Below, piece by piece: positions 37,493-52,714 of a stretch of 64,000 bases of DNA. The position numbers were made by a program, and so were the translations under genes. How positions within the stretch are numbered: the stretch's first letter is position 1; each line of letters opens with the position of its first letter. Below the pieces are notes generated by a model. It was not told where the DNA came from. It searched no databases and saw only the letters and a list, made by a program, of their open reading frames with translations. This stretch comes from Actinoallomurus iriomotensis (GTDB taxonomy: Bacteria > Actinomycetota > Actinomycetes > Streptosporangiales > Streptosporangiaceae), in the NCBI RefSeq assembly GCF_030269445.1, contig NZ_BSTJ01000015.1, forward strand, positions 132,649 to 196,648, given 5' to 3'.

Positions 37493-38659
37493 CTAGGCGG
37501 CGGACTCCGTGGCGGCGAGGGTCAGCGCTCCGATCAGGCCCGCTCGGGGGCCCAGCGAGGAGGTGCGGACCTGGACGCGGTCGCTGATCGCGGGCTGGGC
37601 GAAGCGGCGCAGGGACTCGCGGATCCCTTCCAGGAGAGCGTCGCCCGCGGTGGCGAGTTCGCCGCCGATGATGAGCATCGCGGGGTCCAGGGCGTTGCAC
37701 AGGTCGGACAGGACCCGTCCGATCCGGCGTCCCGCATCGGTGATGATCCGGGCCGCGACCGGGTTGCCGGCCAGGGCGGCCAGGGAGAGGTCGTCGGGCC
37801 ATTCGGTTCGTTCGGGAAGCGGCAGGCCCGCCGCGACGAGTTGCCGCCACACCTCGCCGATCGACACCACCGACTCGAGGCAGCCGCGCTGCCCGCACCG
37901 GCACTGCGCACCGCCCTCCTGGATCAGCGTGTGCCCGATCTCCCCCGACGCGCCGTACGCTCCGGTGTAGCGCCGGCCCGCGAGGATCAGCCCGGCCCCG
38001 ATGCCGTGGGAGGCCTTGACGTAGATCAGGTCGGACGCGTTCCGCCCGGTCCCGTGGGTGTGCTCGGCCAGCGCGGCGAGCTCGGCGTCGTTGGCGATCA
38101 GCACCTCGCCGCCGAGGCGGGCGGTCAGCTCCTGCCGGGGACGGACTCCGGTCCAGCCCGCGAGGATCGTGGCCGACTGGATCCGGCCGGTCGCCTGGTT
38201 GACCGGTCCCGGGATCCCCGCCGCCGTCCGCAGCACCGAGCCGGCCGGGACTCCCGTCCGGTCCAGGAGGTCGGCGACCAGGACCGCCGCCTGGTCGAGC
38301 GCGTTGCCGGCCGAGGCCTCCACGTCGAGGCGCATCCTGGCCTCGGCGACGATCTCCTGCGTGGTCGTGGCGAGCGCCGCCGCGATGTGCGTGTGCCCGA
38401 AGTCGATCCCGACGAGGTGTCCCGGCGGGCGGCGGGGGGACAGCCGCGACGACGGCCGGCCGCGTCCCGTCTGGCCGTCGGCCGCGTGTTCCCGCACCAG
38501 CCCTTCGGCCAGCAGCCCCCGGACGATCCCCGCGACCGTGCTCGGCGCGAGCCCGGTCCGGCGGCTCAGCTCCTGCCGGGTCGCGGGGAAGGACTGGTTC
38601 AGCGCGTCGAGGATCGTGCGCCTGCTGCGTTCGATCCGCTGGTTCGGTGGGGTGGCCAC
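37493..38659 (-). CDS. ROK-family transcriptional regulator (NagC/XylR type)
   Basis: N-terminal wHTH, sugar-kinase-like fold and Zn motif CRCGQRGCLE. The start was moved to the GTG (VATPPNQRIERSRRTILDAL) because the ORF-track N-terminus MLSIVIRY is encoded by the AT-rich palindromic operator. Confidence 0.8.
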   Translation of the reverse strand: MATPPNQRIERSRRTILDALNQSFPATRQELSRRTGLAPSTVAGIVRGLLAEGLVREHAADGQTGRGRPSSRLSPRRPPGHLVGIDFGHTHIAAALATTTQEIVAEARMRLDVEASAGNALDQAAVLVADLLDRTGVPAGSVLRTAAGIPGPVNQATGRIQSATILAGWTGVRPRQELTARLGGEVLIANDAELAALAEHTHGTGRNASDLIYVKASHGIGAGLILAGRRYTGAYGASGEIGHTLIQEGGAQCRCGQRGCLESVVSIGEVWRQLVAAGLPLPERTEWPDDLSLAALAGNPVAARIITDAGRRIGRVLSDLCNALDPAMLIIGGELATAGDALLEGIRESLRRFAQPAISDRVQVRTSSLGPRAGLIGALTLAATESAA

Positions 38660-38670
38660 GGGCCGAGCGT

Positions 38671-38703
38671 ACCTAATTACGATGCTTAGCACCCTAATTA
38701 GGT
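38671..38703. promoter_or_regulatory. Perfect 9-bp inverted repeat ACCTAATTA-N15-TAATTAGGT in the divergent ROK / GH97 promoter
   Basis: ACCTAATTACGATGCTTAGCACCCTAATTAGGT, which is AT-rich in a 70% GC background. It is followed by the AT-rich gtattaagaatattgacc. Confidence 0.45.
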
Positions 38704-38806
38704 TGTATTAAGAATATTGACCAGAGTCTTTCCGTGTATCTACGATCACGAAGCTTGTCGTGGAGTGTTCTCCGCCACTCCACCCCCTCCACACGAAGAG
38801 GCATGT

Positions 38807-41800
38807 ATGAAGCGTGATGGCACGGAGTGGCGAAGAAGACGGGTGGGACTGCTCGCGATGACGGCGGCCCTCCTGGTCTCAGGAGGAGTCGTGGCGCCTC
38901 AGGTGCAGGCCCAGACCCGGGCCGAGAAGCCCGCCGCGCCCAGCGGTCTCGTCGAGGTCGCCGGGAAGGGCGCTCAGGTCGTCGACTCGCCGGACGGCGA
39001 CCTGCGGGTCGCGGTCACCTCCGACGGCGGACGTCTCACGTACAGCGTGAGGAAGCGCGACAGGGTCCTCGTCGGCGCCTCCGGACTCGGCGTGGATCTG
39101 GCGGGACGCCCCAGCCTCACCCAGGGCATGTCGATCAAGTCCGTCGAACGACACACGATCGACGAGACGTGGAAGCCCGTATGGGGAACCTCCAGCACGG
39201 TCCGGAACCACGCGCGCGAGCTCACCGTCCACGCGGTCCAGGCCGGCACCGGGTTCGAGCTCGACCTGGTGTTCCGGGTCTTCGACGACGGGGTCGGCTT
39301 CCGTTACCACTTCCCCGGCCAGCCCGGGTTGGGCGCCTACACCGTCACCGCCGAGCAGACCGAGTTCGCTCTGGATCCCGGCGCGAGGAGCTGGTCGATC
39401 GCCGCGGGCACGACCTGGAGCGCCGACGAGCAGCACTATCGCGACCTGCCCCTGTCCGCTGTCGCCACGGCCCAGACGCCCATCACCGCCTCACCCGCCG
39501 CCGACGCCTATGTGGTGGTGCACGAGGCCGACCTGACCGACTACCCCAGCATGACGCTGAAAGCGGTGCCGGGGCAGCCCGGCCGGTTCTCCAGCGACCT
39601 GATCTCCCTCCCCGACGGCACCAAGGCCAAGCTGAACGGCGAGTTCGCCACGCCCTGGCGCACCCTGACCGTGGGCGACCGACCCGGCGACCTGGGTGAG
39701 TCCCATCTGACCGAGAACCTCAACGACCCGTGCGCGATCTGCGACGACACGTCCTGGATCAAGCCCGCGACGTACACGGGCGTCTGGTGGGAACTCCAGC
39801 GGCGGGAGACCACCTGGAACGCCGGGCCCAAGCACGGCGCGACCACCGCGCGGGTCAAGCAGTACATCGACCTGGCCAAGCAGGCGGGTGCCAAATTCGT
39901 CCTCGCCGAGGGCTGGAACACCAACTCCGGCGGAGCCTGGACGGGCCAGGACTTCCTGACCCCGCAGGCCGACTTCGACCTTCCCGAGGTGCTCCGGTAC
40001 GCCAAGGCCAACGGCGTGGGGTTCATCGCGCACAACGAGACCCGGGGCGATGTCGACTACTACGACCAGAACATGGAGAAGATCTTCTCCCGGTACGAGG
40101 AACTCGGCATTCACGGGATCAAGACCGGCTACGCCACCAAGTTCGTGCTCGGCGGGGTCAACCGCAGCCACTACGACCAGGAGGCCGTCCGCCACTTCCA
40201 GCGGGTGATCGACACGGCGGCCCGGCACCACATCATGGTCGACGCCCATGAGGCGATCAAACCCACCGGCCTGGCGCGCACCTACCCGAACATGATGACG
40301 GGTGAAGGCGTCGCGGGCATGGAGCAGCAGAACTACATGGGCGTCAACGGCAACCCGCCCGCGCAGGCCACGATTCTCCCATTCACCCGGTACATGGGAG
40401 GGCCCGCCGACTACACGCCCGGCGTCCTGAACGTCACCTGGGACCCGGCCCACCTCGGGACCCGCGTCCAGACCACCTCGGCCGCGCAGCTCGCGCTGTA
40501 CCCGACGTTCTTCAGCCCCCTGCAGATGCTCGCCGACACCCCCGAGAACTACGCCGCCCACCCCGGCTTCGCCTTCCTCAAGGACATGCCCACCACCTGG
40601 GACGAGACCCGCGTCCTGGACAGCGCCATCGGGGACTACACGACGACGGCCCGGCGGAAGGGCGACACCTGGTACCTCGGCGCGATCACCGACGAGAACG
40701 ACCGGACCCTCCAGGTGCCGCTGTCCTTCCTCTCGCACGGCACCTTCGTGGCGGAGATCTACGCCGATGCCCAGGAGACCACCTGGAAGGGCGACCCGCT
40801 GCCCGTCGAGATCCGCAGGACGCTGGTCAAACCGTCCACCCGGTTGTCCATGTCGCTGGTCGCCGCCGGCGGCCAGGCGGTCAAGCTCAGGCCCGCGACC
40901 GCCGCGGATCTGGCGGACCTGCCCTGGTACGCCGCGCCGCGTGCCGGTTACGGCACCACCCAGGCCGTACTGGACCCGGCCACCCAGCAGCTGACCGTGA
41001 AGGTCCCGCTCACCAACGGCGGCAGCACCGTGGCCGCGTTCGAGGCCCAGGTGTTCCTCGACGGCCGCCCCGCCGGCGAGGCGCGGCGCGTCCGCGTCGC
41101 GGGCGGCGGAACCCGGACCGTCGAGTGGACGCTCCCCGCCGCGGAGGTGCCGGACCGGGACTTCCGGGTCGCGGTGGGCGCGCCCGGCGGCGAACACGGC
41201 AAGCCGGTGCCGGTGGAACAGACCCGTTCGGTGCTCGACCTCGTCCGGGAACTGCACAAGTCCGGCGAAGTGACGTCGTCCGCGCTGGCGCGCCTTCAGC
41301 CCGCGATCAACAGGGCCGAGACCACGCTCCGCCAGGGCGACCCGACGGGCCGTCTCCTGGCCCTCCAGGACGTACGGCTCGCCCTCTACGACCTGCCCCT
41401 CACCGACGTGACCGCGCCGGCCCGTACCGCCATCGACTACCGGCTCGCCCCTCGGCTCGGCGCACCGCAGGGGCTCTTCTCTCTCGCGTTGAAGGTGCGG
41501 CAGGCCACCGACACGGGGGCCGTCGACTCCGCGCTGTCCGGCAGGCTCGCCTCCGAGGTCAAGGCCGCCGTCGCGGCGGCGGTCGCGAAGAACCCCGGGG
41601 ACATGCGGGAGGCCCTGGGCCGGTTCACGACCCTGGTCGAGGCCGGACCGGTCACCCCGGACGCCGCGGCCGACCTGCTGGCCGCCGGCCGGATGCTCGC
41701 CACCGCGCCCCGTACGATCGAGGCGGAGTCCGCCCAGCTCCTCGGCGCGGCGTGCCGGCGCACCGACCACACCGGCTACACCGGTACGGGCTTCGTGGCC

Positions 41801-42109
41801 TGCCTGAAGACCAAGGACAGCGGCGTACGGTTCACCGCCCCGGTCCCCGCCGACGGCGTCTACACCGTCCGCCTCCGCTACGCCAATGCCATGGGCGCGA
41901 CCCAGACCATGTCCCTCACCAGCGGCACGCGAACCGTCCAACTCGGGCTGCCGAACCTGGCCACCTGGGACGTCTGGTCGGACCACCAGGTCAGCCTCCC
42001 CCTGAGCCAGGCCGCCCCGCTGAACTTCGTGTTCGGCCCGAACGACGACGGCAACGTCAACCTCGACTCCATCACCCTCGAACCCGACCCAGGCGTCATC
42101 CGCCGGTAG
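38807..42109 (+). CDS. Secreted GH97-family glycosidase with long C-terminal extension ending in a CBM6/CBM35-like beta-sandwich
   Basis: Signal peptide MKRDGTEWRRRRVGLLAMTAALLVSGGVVAPQVQAQ. GH97-type HEAIKPTGLARTYPNMMTGEGVAGMEQQ. The C-terminal about 130 aa is CBM-like (YTGTGFVACLKT...YTVRLRYANAMG...NVNLDSITLEP). The GH97 family assignment is from memory of the motifs. Confidence 0.75.
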   Translation: MKRDGTEWRRRRVGLLAMTAALLVSGGVVAPQVQAQTRAEKPAAPSGLVEVAGKGAQVVDSPDGDLRVAVTSDGGRLTYSVRKRDRVLVGASGLGVDLAGRPSLTQGMSIKSVERHTIDETWKPVWGTSSTVRNHARELTVHAVQAGTGFELDLVFRVFDDGVGFRYHFPGQPGLGAYTVTAEQTEFALDPGARSWSIAAGTTWSADEQHYRDLPLSAVATAQTPITASPAADAYVVVHEADLTDYPSMTLKAVPGQPGRFSSDLISLPDGTKAKLNGEFATPWRTLTVGDRPGDLGESHLTENLNDPCAICDDTSWIKPATYTGVWWELQRRETTWNAGPKHGATTARVKQYIDLAKQAGAKFVLAEGWNTNSGGAWTGQDFLTPQADFDLPEVLRYAKANGVGFIAHNETRGDVDYYDQNMEKIFSRYEELGIHGIKTGYATKFVLGGVNRSHYDQEAVRHFQRVIDTAARHHIMVDAHEAIKPTGLARTYPNMMTGEGVAGMEQQNYMGVNGNPPAQATILPFTRYMGGPADYTPGVLNVTWDPAHLGTRVQTTSAAQLALYPTFFSPLQMLADTPENYAAHPGFAFLKDMPTTWDETRVLDSAIGDYTTTARRKGDTWYLGAITDENDRTLQVPLSFLSHGTFVAEIYADAQETTWKGDPLPVEIRRTLVKPSTRLSMSLVAAGGQAVKLRPATAADLADLPWYAAPRAGYGTTQAVLDPATQQLTVKVPLTNGGSTVAAFEAQVFLDGRPAGEARRVRVAGGGTRTVEWTLPAAEVPDRDFRVAVGAPGGEHGKPVPVEQTRSVLDLVRELHKSGEVTSSALARLQPAINRAETTLRQGDPTGRLLALQDVRLALYDLPLTDVTAPARTAIDYRLAPRLGAPQGLFSLALKVRQATDTGAVDSALSGRLASEVKAAVAAAVAKNPGDMREALGRFTTLVEAGPVTPDAAADLLAAGRMLATAPRTIEAESAQLLGAACRRTDHTGYTGTGFVACLKTKDSGVRFTAPVPADGVYTVRLRYANAMGATQTMSLTSGTRTVQLGLPNLATWDVWSDHQVSLPLSQAAPLNFVFGPNDDGNVNLDSITLEPDPGVIRR

Positions 42110-42139
42110 CCATGCCGGTCATGCGGTAGCGCCGCCGTC

Positions 42140-42180
42140 CCGGGTGCCGGTAGATCTCCACGAGATCTACCGGCACCCGG
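42140..42180. terminator. Perfect 19-bp-stem hairpin (CCGGGTGCCGGTAGATCTC-cac-GAGATCTACCGGCACCCGG) 30 bp after the GH97 stop
   Basis: Read directly. It is very stable and has no U-tract. Probable terminator and left boundary of the lower-GC block. Confidence 0.6.
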
Positions 42181-42479
42181 CTTCGTGGTCAGGCGCCGAG
42201 GTGCCGCGCGGCGGAGTGGATCCTCATGGCGGGCGCCGGACGCCCAGCGCACGCCATTCCCACCCTCATTAAGGACATGCCGAAATCGACATTTAATTAC
42301 ACGCGGCGAGTCCGGTCCTCATGAGCTCCATGCGTCCAACCGAGGGACGCCCGCCTATTGCGAATAGCGGCAGCGGCAAAACCCCGACCGGGGATCCGAT
42401 GGAGATTCCGTTAAGCTTCTTATCTCTCCGCTTCTTCGACGTTATCGTGGTTTGGGGTCGGCAAAGGGGGAGTCCTCAC

Positions 42480-43295
42480 ATGTTGCGGCAGACCAGGTGG
42501 TTGACGGTCGCCGCGCTGCTGGGAGCCGCGGTCTGCGGCCCGGCCGTCTCCCCCGCCCACGCCGATCCCGCCGGAGACGCCCAGACGCTTTACTGCGCGA
42601 AACCGGGAAACAAGCGTCCGCTTGTGGACACCGCGGTGGCGCTGGGCCTGGCCGGCCGGGGAACTCATGACAAGCCGCTTAAGGTCAACGGCCGCGATTA
42701 CGCGGTCAAGGACTGGCGGCAGGCCTTCCCCCTCGATTTCGGCCGTGCCTGTGCCGCGCTCGTCGCGGTCCGGAAATTGCCGGAGACCTCGAGCGGCTGG
42801 ACCGGCGAGCTGGTCAAGACGGTGATCGGGCTGATCCCCGTCGGGGTCGGCGCGCTGCTCGCGCTCGGCTCCGGCATGCTGACCACACGGAAGGCGAGCG
42901 CGGAGAGGGCGGCGGGAGAGCTGCACGCCGCGGCGACGGCCTACGAGCGGGCCTGCCGCGACTGCCTGATCGGCTGGCGCCGAGGCCAGGGGCGGTCGCT
43001 CGAAGCGGCCATGGACGCACCGCTCAGCGGGCTGCTGGCCGACCTCCAGCGCCGCAAGAGCCGTCATCCCCGATGGAGACTCGAACGGCTGATCACGGCG
43101 ATCAGAATCCTCGACCGGGACATCCGCGAGGCCGACTGGCCGACCGAGCCCGCGCGGCTGAGACAGGACGCGCAGCGGCTCCTGGACCGGCTGGAGGCAC
43201 GGCACGCCGACGCCATGGAGGTCGTCTCCCGGCTGGACCGCCCCTGGCGGTGGTACGGCCCGGTGCGGACCGAGCACGACGAGACACCGCCATGA
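42480..43295 (+). CDS. Signal-peptide + single-TM protein with a small Cys-containing extracytoplasmic domain and a helical cytoplasmic tail; first gene of the three-gene NTPase module
   Basis: AAAGGGGGAG RBS. Signal peptide MLRQTRWLTVAALLGAAVCGPAVSPAHA. TM helix TVIGLIPVGVGALLALGSGMLTT. The stop overlaps the next ATG (ATGA). Confidence 0.55.
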   Translation: MLRQTRWLTVAALLGAAVCGPAVSPAHADPAGDAQTLYCAKPGNKRPLVDTAVALGLAGRGTHDKPLKVNGRDYAVKDWRQAFPLDFGRACAALVAVRKLPETSSGWTGELVKTVIGLIPVGVGALLALGSGMLTTRKASAERAAGELHAAATAYERACRDCLIGWRRGQGRSLEAAMDAPLSGLLADLQRRKSRHPRWRLERLITAIRILDRDIREADWPTEPARLRQDAQRLLDRLEARHADAMEVVSRLDRPWRWYGPVRTEHDETPP

Positions 43296-44212
43296 GCCAC
43301 CCCGACGAGCGCGTCAATCCCTTCTGCCGGGACGAGGGGCACACCATGCCCAACCCGCCGCTGAAGTGCCTCCATCCCGAGAGCTGCACGTGCCACGTCG
43401 ACGTCGACCATGCCGGCGAGAGCTACGAGCTCTTCCGGACCGCGCTGAACGGCGTCGGGACGCTCCAGCAGACCGGCCTTTTCGTCGCGGTGGGCGGCCC
43501 CACCGGCTGCGGCAAGACCTCGCTGGTCAACCGGTGCGCCGTCTGGGCCCAGCGACACCTGGAGGACAAGGGCGTCAAGACCCTTCCGCTCAACTTCAGC
43601 GGCCTCGAACGCGACGGGCAGACCATCGACCGGCGCGTCCGCAAGGTGGGCACCAGGATGTACCGGGCGGTCTCGCGCAACCAGCAGCTCGTCGAGGGCG
43701 ACCTCCCGCAGATCGACTGGACGGCCGACCTGGAGGAGCTCACGTTCACGCTGAGCACGACCATGAAGCCCGAGACCGCTCTGATCGTCGTCGCCCCACC
43801 GGCCGAGCGGTCCTCCGAGGTCGCCGAATACTGGGCGGCGACGCAGCGGAAGATGCTGGTGTTCTCCGAATCGGCCGACGAAAGCCTCCAGCGACGCAAG
43901 AACGAATGGAAGATCAATGAAGTGGCGCAGCCGATCTACTTGAGGACCGGACCGCTACGACCAGGCGACGGCGCCGTCTTCCGCAATGCCAGAATCAATG
44001 TTCCGGGCCTGAAGAAAACCTTTCCCGATCTGGCACCCGACGCCATTGACGCACTCACTGGAGGTCAAGAGTTGTCCATCGGATTTGTGCAGACGTTGCT
44101 ATGGAAGATCTACGAACATTATAAGAGTAATCCGTGGCCGACCGGAGATATAGTAACACTGGATGACTTGACGAGCTTCATAGCGGGCGAGCTGGAGGGG
44201 CGGGCGGGATAG
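43292..44212 (+). CDS. P-loop NTPase with Cys/His-rich N-terminus (306 aa), Walker B apparently degenerate
   Basis: CRDEGHTMPNPPLKCLHPESCTCHVDVDH is a possible Zn ligand set. Walker A VAVGGPTGCGKTSLVN. No clean hhhhDE motif (MLVFSESADE). The 3' half is only about 50% GC. Confidence 0.6.
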   Translation: MSHPDERVNPFCRDEGHTMPNPPLKCLHPESCTCHVDVDHAGESYELFRTALNGVGTLQQTGLFVAVGGPTGCGKTSLVNRCAVWAQRHLEDKGVKTLPLNFSGLERDGQTIDRRVRKVGTRMYRAVSRNQQLVEGDLPQIDWTADLEELTFTLSTTMKPETALIVVAPPAERSSEVAEYWAATQRKMLVFSESADESLQRRKNEWKINEVAQPIYLRTGPLRPGDGAVFRNARINVPGLKKTFPDLAPDAIDALTGGQELSIGFVQTLLWKIYEHYKSNPWPTGDIVTLDDLTSFIAGELEGRAG

Positions 44213-44214
44213 TT

Positions 44215-46464
44215 GTGATGAATGCCCCTAATGCGCGCCAAGAACAGCTAATTGACGACAATCCCTTCCCTCGACCCTCAGCCGATCCCTGGGCGCTCGG
44301 CGTCGACGTGGTCAGCGTGCCGACGCCGGCGATCGACGAGGCGATGCGGCTGCTCGACGCCCACCTCGCCGAAGACGGCACCGAGGGTGTCGTGCTGGCG
44401 GTCTCCGGCGACTACGGCACCGGAAAGACCCACCTGGCGACCCAGTTACTCCGCAAGGTGCGCTCATCGCACGGCGACGACGCACGCTACGCCTATGTGG
44501 GCGCGCAGGAGGGCGGGTTTCACACTCTTTATCGCGGCAACTATCTTGCAACTTTCAATCGCGACGACGTGATCCGCCATATCCGCGAATATTACGCCCA
44601 CATCGTGGCCGACTCGCTGGAGAATACCGGATTCCCTCCTGAGGTCACTCGTCGCCTGCGCGAGCTGGAGATCGATCCACAGCATTTCGTCACGCAGTTC
44701 AATCTGGCCGAGAGCACCTTCCTGCAACGACTCAACGCGGATCTGGCGAAGGTCACCCGGAATGAGGAGTACGGCACCGCCCTCATGCTCCTGCTCCGCA
44801 ACGACCTGGCCGATCAGGTCTGGGAGTGGCTGCGAGGAGAGGAGCCCGATCCCCTGCTCCGCGAGCGGGGCATCACCAGCCGGATCGACGACGAGCCACG
44901 TGCGCTCGAGGCGATGGGCGTGCTGGCGCTCCTCTACCGCGGCCGCTCGCGCCACTTCGTCCTCGTCTTCGACGAACTGGAGAAGGTGCTTCCGAGTTCG
45001 AGCCGTCCCCCCGCGGAGACCATCGCGGCGTTCCGCGCGCTGACCGACCTCGCGACGCGCCAGGGGATCTTCCTCGTGCTCTGCGGCCTGCCGGAGTTCC
45101 TGGAGGCGATCGGCCAGAACAACGCCGAACACGCCATCACGGCGACGATCTCCACCGACGACGGCCTGTCGGCGGAACAGGTGCTCGACTACATCGACAA
45201 GAGCATGGCCGCCACGCGCTACGGGCCGGGGCTGGGTCCCTTCAGCGCGGAGATCATCCAGTTCATCTACCTGCTCACCGGGGGCAACGCTCGCCGGATC
45301 ATCCAGATCTGCCAGTCGTGCTACCGCATGTCGCTCGACACCGGCCGGGTCGACCGATTGATGGTCCGCCGGGCGGCGAAAGGCAAGTCCGAGGTCGTCG
45401 ACGAACGTACGGTCCGCAAGCAGATCGCCACCGAGCTGCAGAAACAGGCTCGCGAGTACCACACCGACCACCCGGTCGGCGGCGAGGACGGCCCCCGCGC
45501 CCCCTACTGGGTCCCCGTCTACGACACGGGGTGCGCGATCTTCCTCACCGACTCGGTCCTGGACGAGGCCGACGCCCAGCGGTTGATCGCCAACGCCAGG
45601 GCGGTCCGTACGACGGCTCCCCGCAGCAGGACCGCGCTCATCGTCAACGGCTTCCTGGCCGACCCGGTGCGCCGGGACCTGGAGGAGAGTTTCTCCGAGC
45701 CGCCTCTCATCTTCGCCAGGGAGCGGTTCTCCGAAGACTTCGAGTCGCTCCTGCGCCGGTTGACCGGGCCGCTGGAGGCCGCCGAGGGCGAGACGGCCGT
45801 GATCCGGGCCAACATCAGCCGGCTCGCGGCGGCGCAGACCAACGCGCAGCGCTATCTGGAGGAGCTCGCGCTCCAGGTCGAGTCGATGCGCGACACCACC
45901 GAACGCCAGTACGCCGCCCTGGCCCGCGATCTGCAGGACCTCGATCCGCGCCGCCGCCACCGGCCGCTGCCCGAGCACGTTGAAGTGATCTTCACGGAGG
46001 TGGTCACCGAACTGAAGGCGCTGACCGGCCTGGACGCCGCCCTCGGCGAGCTGTTCGGCGCCGAGTCGCCGGGGAGCGTGAGCGGCGTCCTGCTGCGGCT
46101 GCACAGCAGCGAGGCCGTGCGCACGGTCGGCGTCGCGAAGCTCACCGAGGCGTTGATCGCGGCCTTCCGTACCGCGGTCGAGGACTGGTACGGGCAGCTG
46201 GACGGTGCGACGCCCAGCGCGCGGCAGCTCGAACGGCTGGCCGTCTTCTGCCGCGCCTTCGACACGGTGCTGGAGGAGCTGCCGGTCTACCAGCTGAACA
46301 CGCTCAACGACCTGCTCGCGCGACCCTCATCGCGGACCGCGGTCATCGAGCAACGCACCCGGTCTCGTCGGCAGGCCGACATGTACGTGCTGCTCAGCGA
46401 GCTCGGGCACCGCGTCCGGCAGGCCTTCTCGGCCACCGGCCCCGGCGGGCTCCACGGCCGCTGA
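44215..46464 (+). CDS. AAA+ / Orc1-Cdc6-like P-loop ATPase, 749 aa, C-terminal 400 aa without recognisable domain
   Basis: Walker A AVSGDYGTGKTHLATQL. Walker B HFVLVFDELEK. Sensor-2-like TGGNARRIIQICQ. The start follows the previous stop by 2 nt. The 5' region is AT-rich (aat/caa/att codons). Confidence 0.7.
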   Translation: MMNAPNARQEQLIDDNPFPRPSADPWALGVDVVSVPTPAIDEAMRLLDAHLAEDGTEGVVLAVSGDYGTGKTHLATQLLRKVRSSHGDDARYAYVGAQEGGFHTLYRGNYLATFNRDDVIRHIREYYAHIVADSLENTGFPPEVTRRLRELEIDPQHFVTQFNLAESTFLQRLNADLAKVTRNEEYGTALMLLLRNDLADQVWEWLRGEEPDPLLRERGITSRIDDEPRALEAMGVLALLYRGRSRHFVLVFDELEKVLPSSSRPPAETIAAFRALTDLATRQGIFLVLCGLPEFLEAIGQNNAEHAITATISTDDGLSAEQVLDYIDKSMAATRYGPGLGPFSAEIIQFIYLLTGGNARRIIQICQSCYRMSLDTGRVDRLMVRRAAKGKSEVVDERTVRKQIATELQKQAREYHTDHPVGGEDGPRAPYWVPVYDTGCAIFLTDSVLDEADAQRLIANARAVRTTAPRSRTALIVNGFLADPVRRDLEESFSEPPLIFARERFSEDFESLLRRLTGPLEAAEGETAVIRANISRLAAAQTNAQRYLEELALQVESMRDTTERQYAALARDLQDLDPRRRHRPLPEHVEVIFTEVVTELKALTGLDAALGELFGAESPGSVSGVLLRLHSSEAVRTVGVAKLTEALIAAFRTAVEDWYGQLDGATPSARQLERLAVFCRAFDTVLEELPVYQLNTLNDLLARPSSRTAVIEQRTRSRRQADMYVLLSELGHRVRQAFSATGPGGLHGR

Positions 46465-47517
46465 GGGGACGAGCCGGGCGTACGCCGTGTTGCTCACGAG
46501 ATAGAGCAGGTTGATGACCAGGATGGCGGGGGCGACCACGGCCACCGTCCCGGCGAACGCGGGTTCGAGGAGCAACGCCAGCACGATCGCCGTGATGCCG
46601 TTCTGCTGCGCCAGTGCCAGGTACACCATGTCGCCGCTGCTCTGCGAACGTGTCAGCGGAAGGCTGACGACCGCCTGGGCGCCGAACGCCGCGAGCCCCA
46701 GGACGAGCCCGGCTCCGGGCGAGATCCCGAGCGAGAGGATCAGGCCGAGCAGACCCGTGGCCAGGACGAAGGCGAGATCGACGGCCCGGTCCAGCAGCCG
46801 GCCGACGGCGCGCGGCCGGCCGGGGATGACCGGCCGCACCGCCAGGCCGACGAGGGCCACGGCCAGCACCCACACCTGCCAGATCGCGACGGCGACCGTG
46901 CCGGCGAGCAGGAGACAGGTGACCGCCAGCCGGGGCCACGGACGGAACCGCCGGACCCACCGGTAGGCCAGGAACACCGCGCCGGCCAGCAGCACGTTGC
47001 CCAGAAGGTCGAGGGCGAAGGACCCGGGTCCGCCGAGGTTCAGCGCGGCGGCCGACCCGCCGTGCCGCGCCGACAGCGCCAGCGCCCCGACATAGATCGT
47101 GAGGAGCGTCGTGACGGGGTCGTCGAAGGACGCCCACGCGAGGAGCAGGCCACGTCCGCGCGCGGAGAGCCGGGAGGAGCCGCCGAGGGCCACCACCGAC
47201 AGCGGGTCGATCTGCGCCACGGCGATGCCGAGCACCAGCGAGCCGGGCCTGGGGAAGAACGCGAGCATGACGGCGCTGATCAACGCGGCTTTCAACAGGA
47301 CGCCCACCGTGACGGCGAGCACGACCGTACGCAGGTCGCCGCGCAGGTGCTCGAGGTCGATGGCGTGCGTGCTGCCGTAGAGGCCCAGCGCGAGAAGCCC
47401 CGTCACCACCGCCGGGTAGTAACCGCTGTTGAGCAGCGCCCCGACATGTCCGAAGTATCCGCCTGCGAGAGCGCCTAATCCGACTATTACGAGCATTAAC
47501 GCAAATCGCTTCGCCAT
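46327..47517 (-). CDS. Cation:proton antiporter (CPA/Na+-H+ exchanger family)
   Basis: 11-12 TM, Gly/Ala-rich helices. The start was moved to ATG MAKRFALMLVIV. Its 3' end overlaps the convergent ATPase gene by about 138 bp. Confidence 0.7.
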   Translation of the reverse strand: MAKRFALMLVIVGLGALAGGYFGHVGALLNSGYYPAVVTGLLALGLYGSTHAIDLEHLRGDLRTVVLAVTVGVLLKAALISAVMLAFFPRPGSLVLGIAVAQIDPLSVVALGGSSRLSARGRGLLLAWASFDDPVTTLLTIYVGALALSARHGGSAAALNLGGPGSFALDLLGNVLLAGAVFLAYRWVRRFRPWPRLAVTCLLLAGTVAVAIWQVWVLAVALVGLAVRPVIPGRPRAVGRLLDRAVDLAFVLATGLLGLILSLGISPGAGLVLGLAAFGAQAVVSLPLTRSQSSGDMVYLALAQQNGITAIVLALLLEPAFAGTVAVVAPAILVINLLYLVSNTAYARLVPSAAVEPAGAGGREGLPDAVPELAEQHVHVGLPTRPGALLDDRGPR

Positions 47518-47606
47518 GGCGCCGGACACTTCCCGCGAGCAGGGGACAAAGACAATGACGACGCTGTCGTTTCGAGTGTAGAATATTGTCAGACCGACGG
47601 CAATTG

Positions 47607-48686
47607 TTACTGTCCGAAACTCGCCCCGGCGCCGACAAGGCCGGCCACGAGTTCGCCCATTCTCCGGTCGGCCTGACTCACGCGCTTCTGGTTGACGGTC
47701 ACCCCGACGAGGTAGTCGCGGGGGCCGAGGCGGTAGTAGTAGACGGCGCCCTGTTCGACGTCCAGCACGATGCGCAGCATCCGGCCGCGAACCGCCTGCC
47801 GGGCGAGTTGGCTCAGCTGCCGGGTGAACGTGACGAACCCCTCGGCCGTGCGCCGGTAGAGCGTCCGCATCGCCGGAGGCGGCAGATGCGCCGGCCGCAG
47901 CGCGACGACCTGCTCGTGGTCGAGGAGGTCCGCCTCCGCGACGATGTCTCCCGACCGGCAGTGCGCGAGGTAGACGAGTTCGTCCGGTCTGAGCAGGTCG
48001 GGCAGCCGGCCACCCAGCGTGGACAGCGGCGAGCTCCGTCGCTGGACCGCGGATCGGAAGGTCTCGTCGTTCGCCGGTTCGTCCGCCGACGGCGCGTTCG
48101 CCGCCGGCATGGTGCTCTTCCAGCCGCCGGGGTTCTGGGACGGGATCCCGAGCCGGTCGCGGAGCCCGTCGACGATGCCGCTGACGAACACATCGGCGTC
48201 GCGGACGAGACCGACCTGCGGCAACACCCGGGCCGTCCGGCCCTTCACGGCGGCGGCGGCTCCGAAGACGATCGCCAGGACGTAGTTCTTCGGCGTGACC
48301 GACATGCAGAACATGGCCCCGCGCTCCGCGTGCAGCACCATGCGGATCAGCCGGCCCGTCTCGAGGTCGTTCAGCTGCTGGTCCAGGGCGGTCATCATGA
48401 AGGCGAGCTGCTGCCCGGCCGCCTGGTAGAAGTGGCGCCGGTCCGGCGACGCGTCGGAGCCGGCCGAGAAGAGCTCCCCGTCGTCGAGCACGTCCACGGC
48501 GAACTCATAGACGCCGTGGTCGTACTTGGCCAGGTAGTGCGGACCTCCCTGCCGGCATACGTAGTCGTGAAAAGTGCTGACCGTAACCTGCTCGATGCTG
48601 CGGCTGCCCGTCCATTCATGGACACTCGCACGAGTTGTGCGAAGCTCCCCCATTGCCGCCTCCTTCGAAAACCCGCTTTTCCCCAT
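47607..48686 (-). CDS. Tandem roadblock/LC7 (MglB-like) domain protein
   Basis: Two repeats of the roadblock pattern (RLIRMVLHAERGAMFCMSV..NYVLAIVF and RMLRIVLDVEQGAVYYYRL..DYLVGVTV) with a Pro/Ala linker. Its ATG shares one nucleotide with the STAND gene stop (TGATG). Confidence 0.5.
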   Translation of the reverse strand: MGKSGFSKEAAMGELRTTRASVHEWTGSRSIEQVTVSTFHDYVCRQGGPHYLAKYDHGVYEFAVDVLDDGELFSAGSDASPDRRHFYQAAGQQLAFMMTALDQQLNDLETGRLIRMVLHAERGAMFCMSVTPKNYVLAIVFGAAAAVKGRTARVLPQVGLVRDADVFVSGIVDGLRDRLGIPSQNPGGWKSTMPAANAPSADEPANDETFRSAVQRRSSPLSTLGGRLPDLLRPDELVYLAHCRSGDIVAEADLLDHEQVVALRPAHLPPPAMRTLYRRTAEGFVTFTRQLSQLARQAVRGRMLRIVLDVEQGAVYYYRLGPRDYLVGVTVNQKRVSQADRRMGELVAGLVGAGASFGQ

Positions 48687-51600
48687 CAGATGATTGGAAT
48701 GTCCACATAAATGGCGGAAGTAATGCTCGCTTCGGTCAGGCCCTCAGCCGTCTCGAGCGCCGCGGCGGCGACCTCGGTATAGGGGTGTTCGTCCCCCAGA
48801 TAGTCGAGCAGGTCCGCGGCGGTCGCCTCGTGCAGTCGCAGCGCCTCGTCGGCCCGGCCGAGACCCGTCAGCGCCCGTGCCTCGTGCAGCGCGGCCACCA
48901 TCGCCCACGGATGCTGCTCGCCGAGCGCGGCGACGAGCCGCTGTCTCGCCTCCCGCACCGTCGCGAGGGTGTTCTCGGGCGCCTCCATCGTGCCCTCGAA
49001 CAGGCCGAGGTCGAGCCGGCACAGCTGGACGAAGGGATGGCCGGGGCCGTACACGCCGACGAGGTCGTCGAGGAGCCGCCGGCCCAGCCGCGAGGCCCCC
49101 AGGTGATCGCCGGCCTCGTCGAGCTCGATCGCCAGGCTCAGCTCGGCGGCCAGGGTGCTGGGATGGCCGGCGCCCAGGACCGCGCGGAACCCGCGCACGG
49201 CCCTCCGGATCTTCTCGTCCGCGGCGTCCACCCCCCGCTGCCGGTCGACGATCGCGAGGCTCCTCAGCAGGTCCATCTCGCTGAGCCGGTCGGGCGTCTT
49301 CTGGTCACGCGCCTGGCCGAGGCTCATGACGAGCAGGCGCCGCGCCTCGTCCTTGCGCCCGTTCGCGAACTTGTAATCGCCGACCCGGCGGGCGATGCGC
49401 AACGCGATCGGGTCGGTCTCCCCGAACTCGGCCACCTGCTGCCGCCACGCGCGTACGGCCGTGTCCTCGGCGAGCTGGTGCTGTCCGGTGAGGAAGGCGG
49501 CCTCGGCGAGGTTGTTACGGGCGATGGTCGTGTCGCGGTGGCCGTCGCCGAGGAGCAGGCGGGTCTCCTCGTACACGCCCTCGATCTCGCCCAGCGCCTG
49601 GCCGAACTGTCCCAGGCCGCGCCGGTCTCCGGTGCGGCCGCGGCCCGCGGTCAGTGCCCAGTAGCGGCCCGCCGCGTCCGCTCCGCGCAGGATCGTCAGC
49701 GCCTGCTCGCTCGCCCGCAGGGCGTCGTCGAACCGGCCGAGGTCACGGCGGAGGTTGGCGACCTGGACGAGCAGGCGCCCCTTGAGCAGGTCGTCCGGCC
49801 AGGCCGGCAGCAGCTCCTCGACCATCGGGAGCATGAGGCTCCAGCTCCCCCGGTCGCCGGTGACGTACTGGAATCGCACCTGCTCGACGAGCCAGCGGCG
49901 AGCGTGGGCGTCGAGGCTCTCGGCGGCCCCGGACGGGCCCAGATGCCGGTGGAGCTCGGAGAACACCTCCCCGTGGAGGCTCACCGGGCCGTCGGCCTCG
50001 ACGGGCACGATGTCCGCGAGGGCGCCGATCGTCTGCCCCTGCCGCTCGGCCGCCTGCTCCGGGGAGAGGCGGTCCCGGATGAGCTCCTGCACCCTCCGGT
50101 GCAGCAGGATCCGCGGGTCGCGGCTCCACTGGACGTCGGCCAGGCCGAAGCGCACGCAGAGCCGCAGCAGCTGGTCCAGCACCATGCTGTCGGCGGCGAC
50201 GAGCTCGCCGGCCTCCGGACCGGCCGCGACGGCGAGCCGGTCGAGGAACGGCGCCGACGCCAAGAGCCGGTGGCTCGCGCCCTCGGGCGCGAGCCAGGCG
50301 CAGAGTTCGAGCAGCCGGGCCGCGAGGCACCCGAGCGGGCCGTCCTCCATCGACTCGAACGTCACGTCCAGGCAGGCCGCGGTCGGCTCCGTCCCGGGCG
50401 TCCTCATCCGCTGGGCGACGCGTGCCTTGAACTCCGCCACCGCCCACGCCGTCGCGCCGTCGGTGTCGAGCGCCCTGATGGCCAGCAGGTAGTCGACCGC
50501 CTCGCGGATCCACGCCGCCGCCAGCCTCAGCGCGAGCGGCAGGCCCTCGACGATGCCGACGACGGTCTCGGCGTGCTCGTCCGACAGCCCGTCGATCCGC
50601 TCGCGCAGGAAACGCCGTCCCGGGCCGGTGTCGACCGGCCCGAGGCGGTCGGCGGCGTCCCCGGCCGTACGGCTGGTGATGAGCACGTGGCCGGGACCGC
50701 CGGACGGGATGAGGTCCTCCAGCGCGGCCAGGTCGTCGGCGTCGTCGTAGACGAGCAGCCAGTTGTCCTGCCCGGAGGAGCGCAGCGCGGTGACGACGGC
50801 CGCCGCGGGGTCGCCCTCCGGGGCCACCCGCAGCCGCGCGGCCAGGGCGTTCAGGTCGAGCCGTGCGAGCTCCGGCGTGCGCGCCGAGACCCACCAGATG
50901 ATCCCGTAGTCCTCGCCGAAGGCCCGGATGTAGTGCTCGACCATGGCGGTCTTGCCGATGCCCGGCGGGCCGCCGAGGACGTGCGGCTCGCAGCCGTCGA
51001 CGTCGCGCATCAGCCGGTCGCGCAGCGCGGCCAGGTCTCCGTCGCGCCCGACGAACGGGCCGTCGTCGGGCAGGACGTGGTTGGCGACCGCGCCGTCCGG
51101 GGGCGGGTCGAGCGGATACGCGGGGACGAAGCCGACGGGCGGCGAGGGCAGGCCGCCGGCGACGAGGCCGAGCCGGCCTTGTAAGAGCCGGATCGCCTCG
51201 CGTTGCTCCCGGCCGGCGAGGTTCAGCGTGAGCGGCGTGTCCGGGAGCCGCTCGGCGACGTCGTCGGACACGCAGAGCACGAGGGCGGGGTCCGTGCCGT
51301 GCCGCGCGTCGGCGAGCGCCGGCAGCAGGTGGGCCGAGGCGATCACGACGACCCGGCCCGTGACCGGCTCGCCCTCCGCGGCCAGCGTGACGTCGGCGCC
51401 GAGGCCGCGCAGCTGCGCCTGGACCCAGTCGGCCCAGCGGCGGTCGGCCCGGTCGTGGACGACCGTGAACCGCTCGGTCTCGCGGGCTTCGTCCAGGCCG
51501 ACGGCGATGCGGTAGTTCGCCCGCAGCGCGGCCGGCAGCTCGGCGTGACCGGTGACGACGCCGCCGGAGAGCCGCTCGGTCAGCCGGCCGTACGCCCGCA

Positions 51601-52369
51601 CCACCTCGCTGTCCGGCTCCTCCGCCAGGGTCGCGAGGATGGAGCGGCCGGCCTGCCGGGACAGGAACGGGACGGTGAGGACCTCTTTGCCGGTGCCGGG
51701 CGGTGCCTCGAACAGCTGGGTGAGGAGGTCCGCGTCGACCTGGGCGATCTCCGGCCCGGTGGTGCGGGGACCGGCCCGCAGTGGCAGCAGGTCGATCCCG
51801 GCCGCGGCCTGCGCCTGGATCGCCTCGGCGAGGTTCGCCGCCTGAAGGGCGGCCAGGCGGCCCGGCCCGAAGGCCACGACGGCGACGTCGCTGCCCCGGG
51901 CGATGACGTCGATGATGTCGGCGTTCGGCTCGGTGGGCGCGTCGACGAGGATGTAGCCGTAGGGCAGGTCCTCCATCGCGTCGCGCAGCCGCTGGACGAT
52001 GACGTCGATCGGTTCCGCCCAGGGCAGCCCCGGCAGCGACTCACCTCGCCCGGGGCCGAGGGGCGTGACCAGGTCGACCGGGCCGGCGTCTCCGGGAGGC
52101 TGGAACCGTTCGGGCCGCCACGTGCCGGGGTCCTGTCCGGTCAGCCGGTCGAGGAGCGCGCCGAGCGCGGCGACCTCGGGCGGCTCACCGACGCTGAAGG
52201 GCTTGAAGTAGCCGCGATCGGTGGGGCGCTCGCCGCTCCAGTCGACGACGAGGACGCGCTCACGCGCTCCGGCCAGGATCATGGCGGTGTTCGCGACGGC
52301 CGCGGTGCGGCCGAGCCCCCGCGCCGCCGAGGTGAACGTCACGCACCGGGTCGAGCGACGGCCGGTCAC
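48686..52369 (-). CDS. STAND NTPase: degenerate ParA/MinD-like N-domain, TIR-like domain, NB-ARC, C-terminal TPR array (1227 aa)
   Basis: Deviant P-loop FTSAARGLGRT. TIR-like ERFTVVHDRADRRWADWVQAQLRGLGADVTLAAEG...VVVIASAHLL. NB-ARC: GGPPGIGKT, LLVYDDADD, HVLITSR, GLPLAL. More than 10 TPR-like repeats. GTG start overlapping the upstream small ORF (GTGA). Confidence 0.85.
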   Translation of the reverse strand: MTGRRSTRCVTFTSAARGLGRTAAVANTAMILAGARERVLVVDWSGERPTDRGYFKPFSVGEPPEVAALGALLDRLTGQDPGTWRPERFQPPGDAGPVDLVTPLGPGRGESLPGLPWAEPIDVIVQRLRDAMEDLPYGYILVDAPTEPNADIIDVIARGSDVAVVAFGPGRLAALQAANLAEAIQAQAAAGIDLLPLRAGPRTTGPEIAQVDADLLTQLFEAPPGTGKEVLTVPFLSRQAGRSILATLAEEPDSEVVRAYGRLTERLSGGVVTGHAELPAALRANYRIAVGLDEARETERFTVVHDRADRRWADWVQAQLRGLGADVTLAAEGEPVTGRVVVIASAHLLPALADARHGTDPALVLCVSDDVAERLPDTPLTLNLAGREQREAIRLLQGRLGLVAGGLPSPPVGFVPAYPLDPPPDGAVANHVLPDDGPFVGRDGDLAALRDRLMRDVDGCEPHVLGGPPGIGKTAMVEHYIRAFGEDYGIIWWVSARTPELARLDLNALAARLRVAPEGDPAAAVVTALRSSGQDNWLLVYDDADDLAALEDLIPSGGPGHVLITSRTAGDAADRLGPVDTGPGRRFLRERIDGLSDEHAETVVGIVEGLPLALRLAAAWIREAVDYLLAIRALDTDGATAWAVAEFKARVAQRMRTPGTEPTAACLDVTFESMEDGPLGCLAARLLELCAWLAPEGASHRLLASAPFLDRLAVAAGPEAGELVAADSMVLDQLLRLCVRFGLADVQWSRDPRILLHRRVQELIRDRLSPEQAAERQGQTIGALADIVPVEADGPVSLHGEVFSELHRHLGPSGAAESLDAHARRWLVEQVRFQYVTGDRGSWSLMLPMVEELLPAWPDDLLKGRLLVQVANLRRDLGRFDDALRASEQALTILRGADAAGRYWALTAGRGRTGDRRGLGQFGQALGEIEGVYEETRLLLGDGHRDTTIARNNLAEAAFLTGQHQLAEDTAVRAWRQQVAEFGETDPIALRIARRVGDYKFANGRKDEARRLLVMSLGQARDQKTPDRLSEMDLLRSLAIVDRQRGVDAADEKIRRAVRGFRAVLGAGHPSTLAAELSLAIELDEAGDHLGASRLGRRLLDDLVGVYGPGHPFVQLCRLDLGLFEGTMEAPENTLATVREARQRLVAALGEQHPWAMVAALHEARALTGLGRADEALRLHEATAADLLDYLGDEHPYTEVAAAALETAEGLTEASITSAIYVDIPII

Positions 52370-52584
52370 GCCGTGCCGCCTGCCCTCGTGCCGCGCTCCG
52401 TCCGGCGCGAGCCTTCGAGGACCGTGTCATTGATGAAACTGGCGTATCCCGGCGTGCCCTCGTCGCCCTCGCGGCGTCTCCGGGTCAGCGCCCAGCCCAT
52501 GACCGACTCGTCCTGTTGTAGGTCCGGAGCCTCCAGATCGACCCCCGAGAGGTCCACCAGAGCCGGCTGCCCGTTTCCCCGCAT
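52366..52584 (-). CDS. Candidate small peptide (72 aa); possible RiPP precursor of the adjacent rSAM/SPASM enzyme
   Basis: GGTGGAGG RBS. Acidic, Leu-rich leader-like N-terminus ALVDLSGVDLEAPDLQQDESV. GYASFINDT aromatic-x-Asn motif. In-frame TAG 10 codons upstream of the ATG. Sits between the STAND gene and the divergent rSAM gene. Confidence 0.35.
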   Translation of the reverse strand: MRGNGQPALVDLSGVDLEAPDLQQDESVMGWALTRRRREGDEGTPGYASFINDTVLEGSRRTERGTRAGGTA

Positions 52585-52615
52585 GCCTCCACCGCCCGCG
52601 CCCAGAACCGACTTC

Positions 52616-52666
52616 TATAATAGACACCGCTTTTTACATGGTCCCCCACTAAAGTGGTTTGTAAAG
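52616..52666. promoter_or_regulatory. Divergent promoter with consensus -10 TATAAT and nested inverted repeats TTTACA..CCACT-aa-AGTGG..TGTAAA
   Basis: acttcTATAATagacaccgcttTTTACAtggtcccCCACTaaAGTGGttTGTAAAg. This AT-rich island lies between the peptide/STAND operon and the rSAM gene. Confidence 0.4.
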
Positions 52667-52714
52667 CGTCACTCGACACTATCGACCCCCTAGACCCGGC
52701 GTAGGCTCCGGTTC

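Follow-up and report, generated by a model that had tools for sequence, protein, structure and literature searches.

Peptides with an FxSxx-COOH terminus and the radical SAM protein FxsB have been known from genomics since about 2011. The closest described systems are those of Kaur, Burroughs, Iyer and Aravind (2020), in which FxSxx peptides occur with a radical SAM/SPASM enzyme and a zincin-like (HExxH) protein (PMC7159879). In the parts of that paper drawn on here, the Fxs genes are coupled to VMAP-MoxR-vWA "ternary" conflict systems and to TIR/AP-ATPase/TPR proteins, a stand-alone Fxs form with an AP-ATPase carrying an inactive MinD/ParA-like domain is already described, and the Fxs peptide is proposed to be a toxin or a signal that amplifies a core STAND/TIR conflict system. 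FxsB has been reported to form cyclophanes (PMC10114670). Full-text literature searches on FxsB, FxsA and triceptide returned no paper on Fxs function; the toxin-or-signal proposal is the only one that was found, and a paper on minviopeptin concerned an unrelated cluster. Here we describe an Fxs locus in a stretch of 64,000 nucleotides from Actinoallomurus iriomotensis (contig NZ_BSTJ01000015.1, positions 132,649 to 196,648 of the forward strand), referred to below as the window and numbered from its first letter. The starting point was a set of three genes, here called g1, g2 and g3, which a reading of the letters alone (the original prediction) had singled out as a candidate uncharacterised defence or signalling system.

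The three co-directional open reading frames (ORFs) that the prediction placed between 42190 and 46464 are present. They are the left arm of an eight-gene locus of 11.4 kb (42480-53905) that is conserved among filamentous actinomycetes. On the plus strand g1-g2-g3 converge on fxsA-g6-g5-g4, which lie on the minus strand, and fxsB diverges from fxsA. The trio g1-g3 is probably an accessory module of the Fxs system, not previously described, and not a stand-alone, recently acquired defence island. For the locus as a whole we favour the explanation that it is a distinct subtype of FxSxx-COOH (Fxs) peptide/STAND system, to which we give about an even chance. The features of the locus, with lengths in amino acids (aa) and the evidence for each, are:

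42385-42479, plus strand: 5' leader including the ribosome-binding site GGGGGAG; near-identical in three Actinoallomurus species
42480-43295, plus strand: g1, exported single-pass membrane protein, 271 aa; topology prediction and homologue alignment
43292-44212, plus strand: g2, stand-alone AAA+ ATPase of the ORC/Cdc6 clade, 306 aa, core and lid; model and paralogy to g3
43800-44400, plus strand: AT-rich patch from the 3' end of g2 to the start of g3; conserved in 55 loci
44215-46464, plus strand: g3, AAA+ ATPase, 749 aa; model, motifs and homologues
46327-47529, minus strand: g4, polytopic membrane protein, 400 aa; Na_H_Exchanger affinity and transmembrane prediction
47607-48686, minus strand: g5, cytoplasmic tandem-domain protein, 359 aa; hhalign of the N half against the C half
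48686-52369, minus strand: g6, STAND NTPase with TPR of the FxSxx-COOH system, 1227 aa; NF040586
52366-52584, minus strand: fxsA-like precursor ORF, 72 aa; FxsA hidden Markov model (HMM) and syntenic position
52715-53905, plus strand: fxsB, radical SAM/SPASM peptide maturase; TIGR04269

The evidence that carries the assignment is synteny. A scan of one genome per species gave 53 actinomycete loci, and these were searched with the window proteins by tblastn and HMM. Among the 48 with at least 6.5 kb of downstream sequence, g6 and g5 were each found in 45 and g4 in 37. An fxsA-like ORF precedes g6 in 44 of the 45 loci having g6, and of 45 loci whose flank is long enough, 34 have the radical SAM gene fxsB beyond g6. 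On the other arm, g2 is present in 44 of the 53 loci and g1, as judged by HMM, in 29. At three distant g3 homologues, genes of about 280, 315 and 755 aa converge on genes of about 400, 350 and 1230-1260 aa, the last with AAA_16 and TPR. The loci span Streptosporangiales, Pseudonocardiales, Micromonosporales and Kineosporiales with a g3 identity of only 30-35% across orders, and their outer flanks vary by genus (GH97/ROK in the window; cytochrome bd, short-chain dehydrogenase/reductase (SDR) and acyl-CoA synthetase genes elsewhere). Because the flanks differ and g3 is so divergent, the synteny reflects more than recent common descent. The order of the trio, which the original prediction had proposed to check in other genomes, recurs widely, and its picture of a conserved, uncharacterised module of two NTPases and a membrane protein is supported. 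What did not survive is the independence of the three genes: the STAND locus next door is g6, and g6, g4, g5, the fxsA-like ORF and fxsB form one conserved unit with g1-g3. No curated model covers g1, g2 or g3, and their link to Fxs is the co-occurrence in 45 of 48 loci. From this co-occurrence it is very likely that the trio is functionally part of the Fxs-linked locus.

The same comparison bears on a different view, namely that g1-g3 are an autonomous anti-phage or conflict system, with AAA+ proteins of BrxD/BrxC-like or RdrA-like type, that merely lies beside Fxs/STAND genes. Neighbours within defence islands normally shuffle, whereas the co-occurrence seen here keeps a fixed order and orientation, often with overlapping 3' ends, through four orders and changing flanks. 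Copies of the trio do stand alone in some genomes, and the two arms are separate transcription units, both of which would suit autonomy; the stand-alone copies are found among housekeeping and regulatory genes, however, and not among defence genes. BrxC and RdrA are structural neighbours of the trio ATPases, and weak BrxD matches were obtained with PADLOC (27.4 bits) and NCBIfam (NF033438, 27.1 bits against a cut-off of 350); the BREX model PF10923 also stayed below its cut-off (19.0 against 22.2), and the C-terminal half of g3 is unrelated to BrxD and BrxC. No PglZ, PglX methyltransferase or BrxA/B/L was detected when the ORFs examined from 34 to 63 kb were scanned with Pfam and NCBIfam, nor among the genes tabulated for three homologous loci. 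PADLOC called no system; its other matches were likewise sub-threshold (mad3/mad8 about 15 bits, PDC-M28B 14.7 bits) or generic radical SAM matches to pVip. For g3 there was no close plasmid or phage homologue, the one plasmid match being a remote haloarchaeal BREX-type ATPase. An autonomous defence system is therefore quite improbable in our judgement, and the defence-island profile drawn in the original prediction gives way to a unit that is an Fxs/STAND locus. Its inability to match the trio to a named defence system was borne out: the Pfam, NCBIfam and PADLOC scans assigned it to no named defence, BREX, Tn7 or partition system.

The right arm is recognisably Fxs. Residues 438-1209 of g6 pass NF040586, the model for the TPR protein of the FxSxx-COOH system, with 536.3 bits against a cut-off of 300, and g6 also matches AAA_16 and TPR_12. 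The 437 extra residues at its N-terminus contain a degenerate MinD/ParA-like P-loop, ARGLGRT (KGGxGK[ST] in ParA), and a TIR-like region, with weak matches to KGGVGR/AAA_31 at residues 8-48 and to TIR_2 at residues 302-331. This architecture matches the AP-ATPase with an inactive MinD/ParA-like domain as described in the consulted text of PMC7159879. Also in common with the stand-alone form outlined there are the fxsA-like precursor directly upstream of a ParA-like/TIR-like/STAND/TPR protein, the divergent FxsB and the restriction to actinomycetes. FxsB of the window passes TIGR04269, the model for cyclophane-forming radical SAM/SPASM maturases of the FxsB family, with 433.6 bits against a cut-off of 370, and NCBI names a 99%-identical protein as an FxsB-family maturase. 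The family is large (5059 of 8000 scored candidates matched).

The precursor gene was found on the minus strand at the head of the g6 operon, its stop overlapping the g6 start by 4 nt, and none lies between g6 and fxsB on the plus strand. It is the sole significant match (24.5 bits, E 8.7e-7) among 877 six-frame segments of the window to an FxsA HMM that was built without close relatives of the window peptide. The core of the peptide, PGYASF-I-N-D-T, is followed by 18 residues (23 from the Phe to the stop) and is not a canonical FxSxx-COOH end. Peptides tested from Saccharothrix or Actinosynnema, from Micromonospora and from Actinomadura fibrosa pass TIGR04268. Small ORFs in many loci end, directly before the stop codon, in ...RFAAFESSL, ...RYAAFQNKL or ...QYAGFESALDGED, or else in ...GYAGFENT plus 14 residues. 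Other precursors, encoded on the minus strand upstream of g6 (loci L007, L019, L026, L033, L037, L042-L044 and L057), have FxNxx, FxDxx or FxExx cores, Trp in place of Phe (GWQSVIDGDD) and followers of 4-18 residues beyond the five-residue core. This variation indicates that a free FxSxx-COOH end is not universal in this subtype.

The locus differs from described Fxs systems in several respects. According to the portions of PMC7159879 used here, those systems have an HExxH gene; an HExxH motif was found in no protein of the cluster, and the window peptide has FINDT with its 18-residue follower. The same portions of the paper make no mention of g1-g5, and no NCBIfam model matches any of the five. 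The canonical Fxs loci of Streptosporangium roseum and Thermomonospora echinospora both have fxsB followed by a gene of 438-445 aa, a short TPR protein of 845-857 aa and an FxSxx-COOH peptide, and carry in addition either SIR2/nSTAND or EAD-VMAP/MoxR/TPR; neither has any of g1-g5.

Could g1-g5 instead be the maturation, export or immunity genes of a natural product, a ribosomally synthesised and post-translationally modified peptide (RiPP)? In that case the cyclophane peptide would leave the cell through g4 and be handled outside by g1, with the AAA+ pair serving as a leader-peptide chaperone or unfoldase or powering export. FxsB does belong to a bona fide family of RiPP maturases, g4 is transporter-like and g1 is exported, and the locus is without the HExxH enzyme, protease and ABC exporter of other RiPP clusters and without the 438-445-aa gene after fxsB. 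However, no fxsB lies in the flank of 11 of 45 loci that retain fxsA, g6, g5 and g3, and in 3-5 loci g1-g3 occur without any fxs gene. A STAND/TPR protein of 1227 aa would be an odd need for simple biosynthesis, and to our knowledge ORC/Cdc6-clade AAA+ proteins do not act as RiPP enzymes. Taken together, a role for g1-g5 in the maturation, export or immunity of a RiPP is unlikely. A subset of loci, mostly from Micromonospora (L010, L030, L041, L045, L047, L053-L055), have the fxsA-like ORF, g6, g5 and g3 with no fxsB within the flank; in these, either the maturase gene lies at another place in the genome or the peptide acts without modification.

Two further genes complete the right arm. g4 is predicted to be polytopic, with about 10-12 transmembrane segments, and its family has the invariant motifs AQIDP, W..FDDP.T and QQNG.TA. 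Two of 20 family members match PF00999 (Na_H_Exchanger), the best with an E-value of 2.4e-8, and by sequence g4 is classed as a divergent member of the cation/proton-antiporter (CPA, Na_H_Exchanger) superfamily. g5 is built from one domain of about 130 aa that is present twice in tandem (the halves align in hhalign with 99.5% probability and E 7.8e-23); one of 26 family members matches Robl_LC7, weakly, with an E-value of 0.05. Profiles of g4 and g5 found no relative among PDB sequences.

Turning to the left arm, g2 (43292-44212, 306 aa) begins with an ATG that overlaps the TGA of g1 as ATGA. A word-indexed search returned just 3 close homologues of g2, and an exhaustive HMMER search gave 242 representatives, nearly all stand-alone proteins of about 300 aa; each representative stands for a cluster at 50% identity, and the library searched contains 1.84 billion of them. 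Pfam hits were to the P-loop only and sub-threshold, and the g2 profile matched P-loops only among PDB sequences. The AlphaFold2 model, made with 60 homologues as the alignment, has a mean predicted local distance difference test score (pLDDT) of 94.4 and a predicted template modelling score of 0.91 and shows a complete AAA+ fold. The family keeps G69, G74 and K75 of Walker A as well as P169 and R234. Of the original description of g2 as having an intact Walker A and no clean Walker B, the first part stands; as to the second, the model is complete and a strand hhFFAES is conserved, with E193 invariant in a 24-sequence alignment and at least 90% conserved in a 61-sequence alignment. The idea of g2 as a Cys/His-rich, metal-binding NTPase was dropped, since no members outside Actinoallomurus and Actinomadura have the Cys/His cluster. 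Profile-profile comparison shows g2 to be a paralogue of the AAA+ module of g3 (95.9% probability, E 5.6e-9, 266 columns), and g2 ends after the lid. The two proteins share an N-terminal NPF signature. NPF as a free docking motif was rejected, as the segment is confidently packed in the g2 model (pLDDT 86-93); judging from the model, it is more likely a structural signature of the subfamily. A few family members (P0269, P0281, P0288 and P0376) have N-terminal extensions of 110-540 residues, giving proteins of 580-801 aa, and these may be g1-g2 fusions or other domain fusions, from which partners might be recognised.

g3 starts with GTG at 44215 (or ATG at 44218), 2 nt after the TAG of g2, and ends at 46464. 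Its reading as an Orc1/Cdc6-like AAA+ ATPase proved correct. The motifs pointed out in the original prediction are there: Walker A is GDYGTGKTH, Walker B is VLVFDELE with D253 invariant, and R360 of GGNARR is invariant. In the model (pLDDT 83.5), an ORC/Cdc6-like AAA+ module that includes a helical insert takes up residues 38-376; it is followed by an alpha/beta domain at 416-500 and, at 505-739, by a long helical/coiled-coil region for which no relative is known. Against the PDB, the profile made from the C-terminal half gave coiled-coil noise only, in agreement with the earlier remark that this half is long and unassigned. A hypothetical protein of Actinoallomurus sp. CA-142502 has the same sequence as g3 (100% identity), and homologues of about 750 aa, unnamed or generically named, are found in Actinomadura, Saccharopolyspora, Saccharothrix, Actinosynnema, Micromonospora, Actinoplanes and others.

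The coupling noted for the trio, by ATGA overlap at g1/g2 and a 2-nt spacer at g2/g3, is seen in the window, and tight junctions recur across loci. For g1 and g2 this is an overlap of 4 nt in 15 of 19 loci; at g2/g3 the overlap is 4 nt in 27 of 42 loci and 1 nt in 8, with gene starts in other loci chosen heuristically. The convergent 3' ends of g3 and g4 overlap as well, as they do in 22 of 40 loci. In the window they share 138 bp; in other loci the overlap reaches up to 199 bp, where one outlier is probably due to a heuristic gene call. Such an overlap leaves no room for separate terminators, so that antisense or transcriptional interference between the arms is possible.

For both ATPases the elements expected of the ORC/Cdc6-clade fold, namely the AAA+ core and lid, Walker A, Walker B and a sensor arginine, are all present. 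Compared with archaeal and eukaryotic Orc1/Cdc6, g2 and g3 are only 8-19% identical, g3 differs by its long coiled-coil tail, and the context here is bacterial, membrane-linked and tied to a peptide. TnsC, BrxC and RdrA are among the structural neighbours found with Foldseek. TnsC/TniB/MuB proteins have the AAA_22-type fold in common with g2/g3 and give the top matches (E 5e-6). That TnsC tops the list, together with a sub-threshold AAA_22/TniB Pfam match and an insertion sequence (IS) remnant in the window, could suggest that g2/g3 are target-selection ATPases of TnsC/TniB/MuB type from a degenerate mobile element. Yet no transposase (TnsAB/TniA), integrase, terminal repeats or element ends were seen beside the trio in the window region or in the homologous loci examined for gene content; the IS remnant lies 6 kb from the trio and has no counterpart in other loci, and the partners of the trio are conserved, non-mobile genes. 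We regard a mobile-element origin as extremely improbable.

The longest ORF of g1 begins at 42321, and its likely start is the ATG at 42480, giving a protein of 271 aa. Three points favour this start: GGGGGAG lies 7 nt upstream, the alignment of homologues begins at 42480, and the frame upstream is interrupted by indels in relatives, single-base ones in two sister species. These indels are also the reason for treating the leader (42385-42479) as non-coding. About 100 nt before the ATG are almost invariant in three Actinoallomurus species whose proteins are only 75-90% identical, and the sequence further upstream diverges. An Rfam scan of 42-54 kb, the leader included, found no family, and scans for consensus promoters and terminators found no match in the g1 leader or in the divergent region between fxsA and fxsB. 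The palindrome reported for the leader, CTATTGCGAATAG (42356-42368), exists, with 5-bp arms and a 3-nt spacer, and sits just upstream of the conserved leader; it is not conserved in A. acaciae or A. oryzae, and a role as operator was rejected for want of conservation.

The g1 protein is predicted to begin with a signal peptide (...SPAHA/DP), to expose about 85 aa as an outer domain and to cross the membrane once, by a helix, before a cytoplasmic tail that is also helical. Among 19 homologues of 23-37% identity, D33, C39, F87 and C91 do not vary. The exported single-pass protein with a small extracytoplasmic Cys pair is thus real, and the pair is conserved. g1 has no family match in Pfam, NCBIfam or PADLOC.

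The trio had been described as a low-GC module. A dip is real at the g2/g3 junction, with a minimum of 0.49 at 44012-44161 and 0.57 at 43800-44199, where GC at third codon positions (GC3) falls to 0.54. However, only about 300-400 nt are low. Low GC is limited to roughly the final 300 nt of g2, the initial 100 nt of g3 and another patch around 44500-44800, and the genes as a whole range from 0.64 to 0.72 (g1 72.1%, g2 63.8% and g3 68.1%, against 71.4% for the window, with GC3 of 0.88, 0.84 and 0.89). Across 55 homologous loci the 200 nt before the g3 start have a mean GC of 0.60-0.61 against 0.70 on either side. Since the dip is conserved in these loci, it is an old local feature and no mark of recent transfer; a recently transferred, low-GC island was rejected on this ground. 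The horizontal acquisition put forward originally fails also with respect to plasmid and phage homologues, none of which is close, and to the IS remnant, which is distant. A possible reason for the dip is weak mRNA structure for re-initiation, or an internal signal.

In Streptomyces, TTA codons mark bldA-dependent genes linked to development. Of the homologues, 17 of 42 for g2 and 15 of 55 for g3 carry TTA, a rare Leu codon; among flanking ORFs the figure is 10 of 252, a baseline that is biased by the GC3 filter. Within g2 homologues they concentrate in the last 60 or so codons, inside the AT-rich patch before the g3 start. In the window they are found at codon 78 of g3, codons 11 and 18 of g4, codon 396 of g6 and codons 60 and 323 of fxsB. 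They may represent developmental gating of translation, and they are one argument for viewing the whole locus as a developmental or cell-envelope signalling circuit, with an FxsAB peptide pheromone, g1 as the outside receptor, the ATPases as switches and an ion transporter. The locus is also restricted to filamentous actinomycetes, chromosomal and in contexts that are mostly not mobile. The biased baseline weakens the codon argument, though, and the distribution is patchy (the 242 representatives of g2), so that no core developmental set is indicated. Moreover, the STAND/TIR/TPR architecture and the SIR2, nSTAND and VMAP links in sister loci point to conflict systems. A developmental circuit is accordingly an improbable account.

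How, then, might the trio work within an Fxs subtype? Acting on the FxsA-like peptide, FxsB would cross-link the core [YF]A[AGS]-[FW]-x-[SN] into a cyclophane, and the TPR sensor of g6 would read the peptide as a signal or licensing ligand. Together g2 and g3 would make a hetero-oligomeric switch that depends on ATP and is anchored to the membrane through the cytoplasmic tail of g1, whose disulfide-stabilised outer domain would sense an envelope or extracellular cue. The trio would set a threshold for, or relay activation to, the g6/g5/g4 arm, occupying the place of the non-homologous VMAP-MoxR-vWA module in canonical Fxs loci. The output would be the CPA-like transporter g4, through ion flux or membrane depolarisation leading to growth arrest, cell death or a developmental signal; g4 is the most plausible output because g6 has only a degenerate ParA-like domain and a weak TIR-like region. 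As worded, this sensor/threshold mechanism for the trio is tentative, and we put its chance at somewhat below even.

The VMAP-MoxR-vWA module (as far as set out in the text of PMC7159879 consulted; an example is locus L067 of Thermomonospora echinospora) is likewise a three-gene, NTPase-centred set beside fxsA, fxsB and a TPR/STAND gene. By analogy, the trio and VMAP-MoxR-vWA may work alike as threshold setters. There is no homology between them: g2 and g3 are of the ORC/Cdc6 clade and not MoxR (AAA_5), and the trio is without vWA and VMAP and has an exported membrane protein.

A more ambitious version is that the eight genes make up a self-contained, membrane-linked, peptide-gated immune/programmed-death or pheromone circuit, with g4 as effector and with an ORC/Cdc6-like AAA+ heterocomplex docked on the g1 receptor in place of the MoxR-vWA-VMAP chaperone module. 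Here g4 would be gated through a tandem Roadblock-like adaptor (g5) and the NLR-like STAND protein g6, and the cyclophane peptide would be a diffusible or licensing signal. We consider this full circuit unlikely; if true, it would be a previously undescribed NLR-type wiring and the first functional handle on Fxs peptides. The Fxs system itself is known. What is new, as far as sequence comparison tells, is the attachment of the AAA+/receptor trio and of g4 and g5 to the stand-alone FxSxx-COOH/STAND system, that is, a compact, chromosomal eight-gene version without VMAP-MoxR-vWA that has instead two small paralogous ATPases, an exported receptor-like protein and a candidate membrane effector. 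Should the linkage be functional, the locus would offer a tractable system for how a RiPP talks to an NLR-like sensor and a new role for initiator-clade AAA+ ATPases in bacteria, and it would define four unannotated families (g1, g2, g5 and the g3 tail).

Several observations weigh against membership of the trio in an Fxs subtype or against parts of the mechanism. g1-g3 occur without Fxs genes in Streptomyces toyocaensis, where they adjoin an AfsR-like regulator, tyrosinase, VanZ and a histidine kinase, in one Micromonospora and in one Conexibacteraceae metagenome-assembled genome; the trio is probably also alone in Lentzea, between secDF and relA, and in Spongiactinospora. These occurrences imply that the trio can work, or at least persist, alone. 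Conversely, g1 is absent from most Saccharothrix/Actinosynnema loci (in locus L011 only 490 nt separate an SDR gene from g2), and one Micromonospora subclade is without g1 and g2, from which it follows that the full trio is not obligatory. The FxsA-like peptide of the window is not detected by TIGR04268 and is without a free FxSxx C-terminus. The arms are separate, convergent transcription units, the analogy with VMAP-MoxR-vWA is one of position and gene number only, and the contacts of the TPR region with the peptide and of g1 with g2/g3 are purely inferred by us. No fold is assigned to the C-terminal half of g3 or to g5. Finally, the loci were gathered with g3 as bait and are phylogenetically clustered, many of them coming from two genus groups.

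Outside the locus, the window holds genes of other kinds. The original prediction had set the trio between an IS remnant and a STAND locus. The remnant exists; it lies 6 kb away beyond three other genes, however, and the STAND gene is g6, a part of the unit. The remnant is a decayed IS5/IS1182-like transposase in several adjacent, frameshifted ORFs (35009-36499, minus strand) with an N-terminal DUF772-like segment, a DDE region and a C-terminal "AACHNLRKI", as judged by eye. Closer to g1 are a ROK-family regulator gene (37493-38692, minus strand) and, divergent from it, a gene for a secreted GH97 glycoside hydrolase of 1130 aa with C-terminal FIMAH and CBM35-like modules (38717-42109, plus strand). 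The GH97/ROK pair is ordinary carbohydrate metabolism, unrelated to the cluster and absent upstream of it in sister species. Directly after the GH97 stop lies a perfect inverted repeat of about 18 bp with a 5-nt loop (42139-42180), probably the GH97 terminator, though it is without a T-tract; an Rfam match to mir-2056 at this position was judged spurious, due to the inverted repeat.

On the far side, fxsB is followed by an unrelated, convergent DUF3686 gene (53895-58997, minus strand). A literature search for DUF3686 found no paper mentioning it. The gene product, 1700 aa long, combines DUF3686 ("ATPase involved in DNA repair", E 1.5e-214) and DUF7902 with an AAA domain at its C-terminus. Next to this gene is one of very high GC3 whose 668-aa product has a weak flotillin (FloT) match (58778-60784, minus strand) and, after this flotillin-like gene, a 199-aa ORF (60818-61417, minus strand). 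The DUF3686 and flotillin-like genes adjoin fxsB only in Actinoallomurus and were rejected as part of the unit; the DUF3686 group looks like a separate conserved operon.

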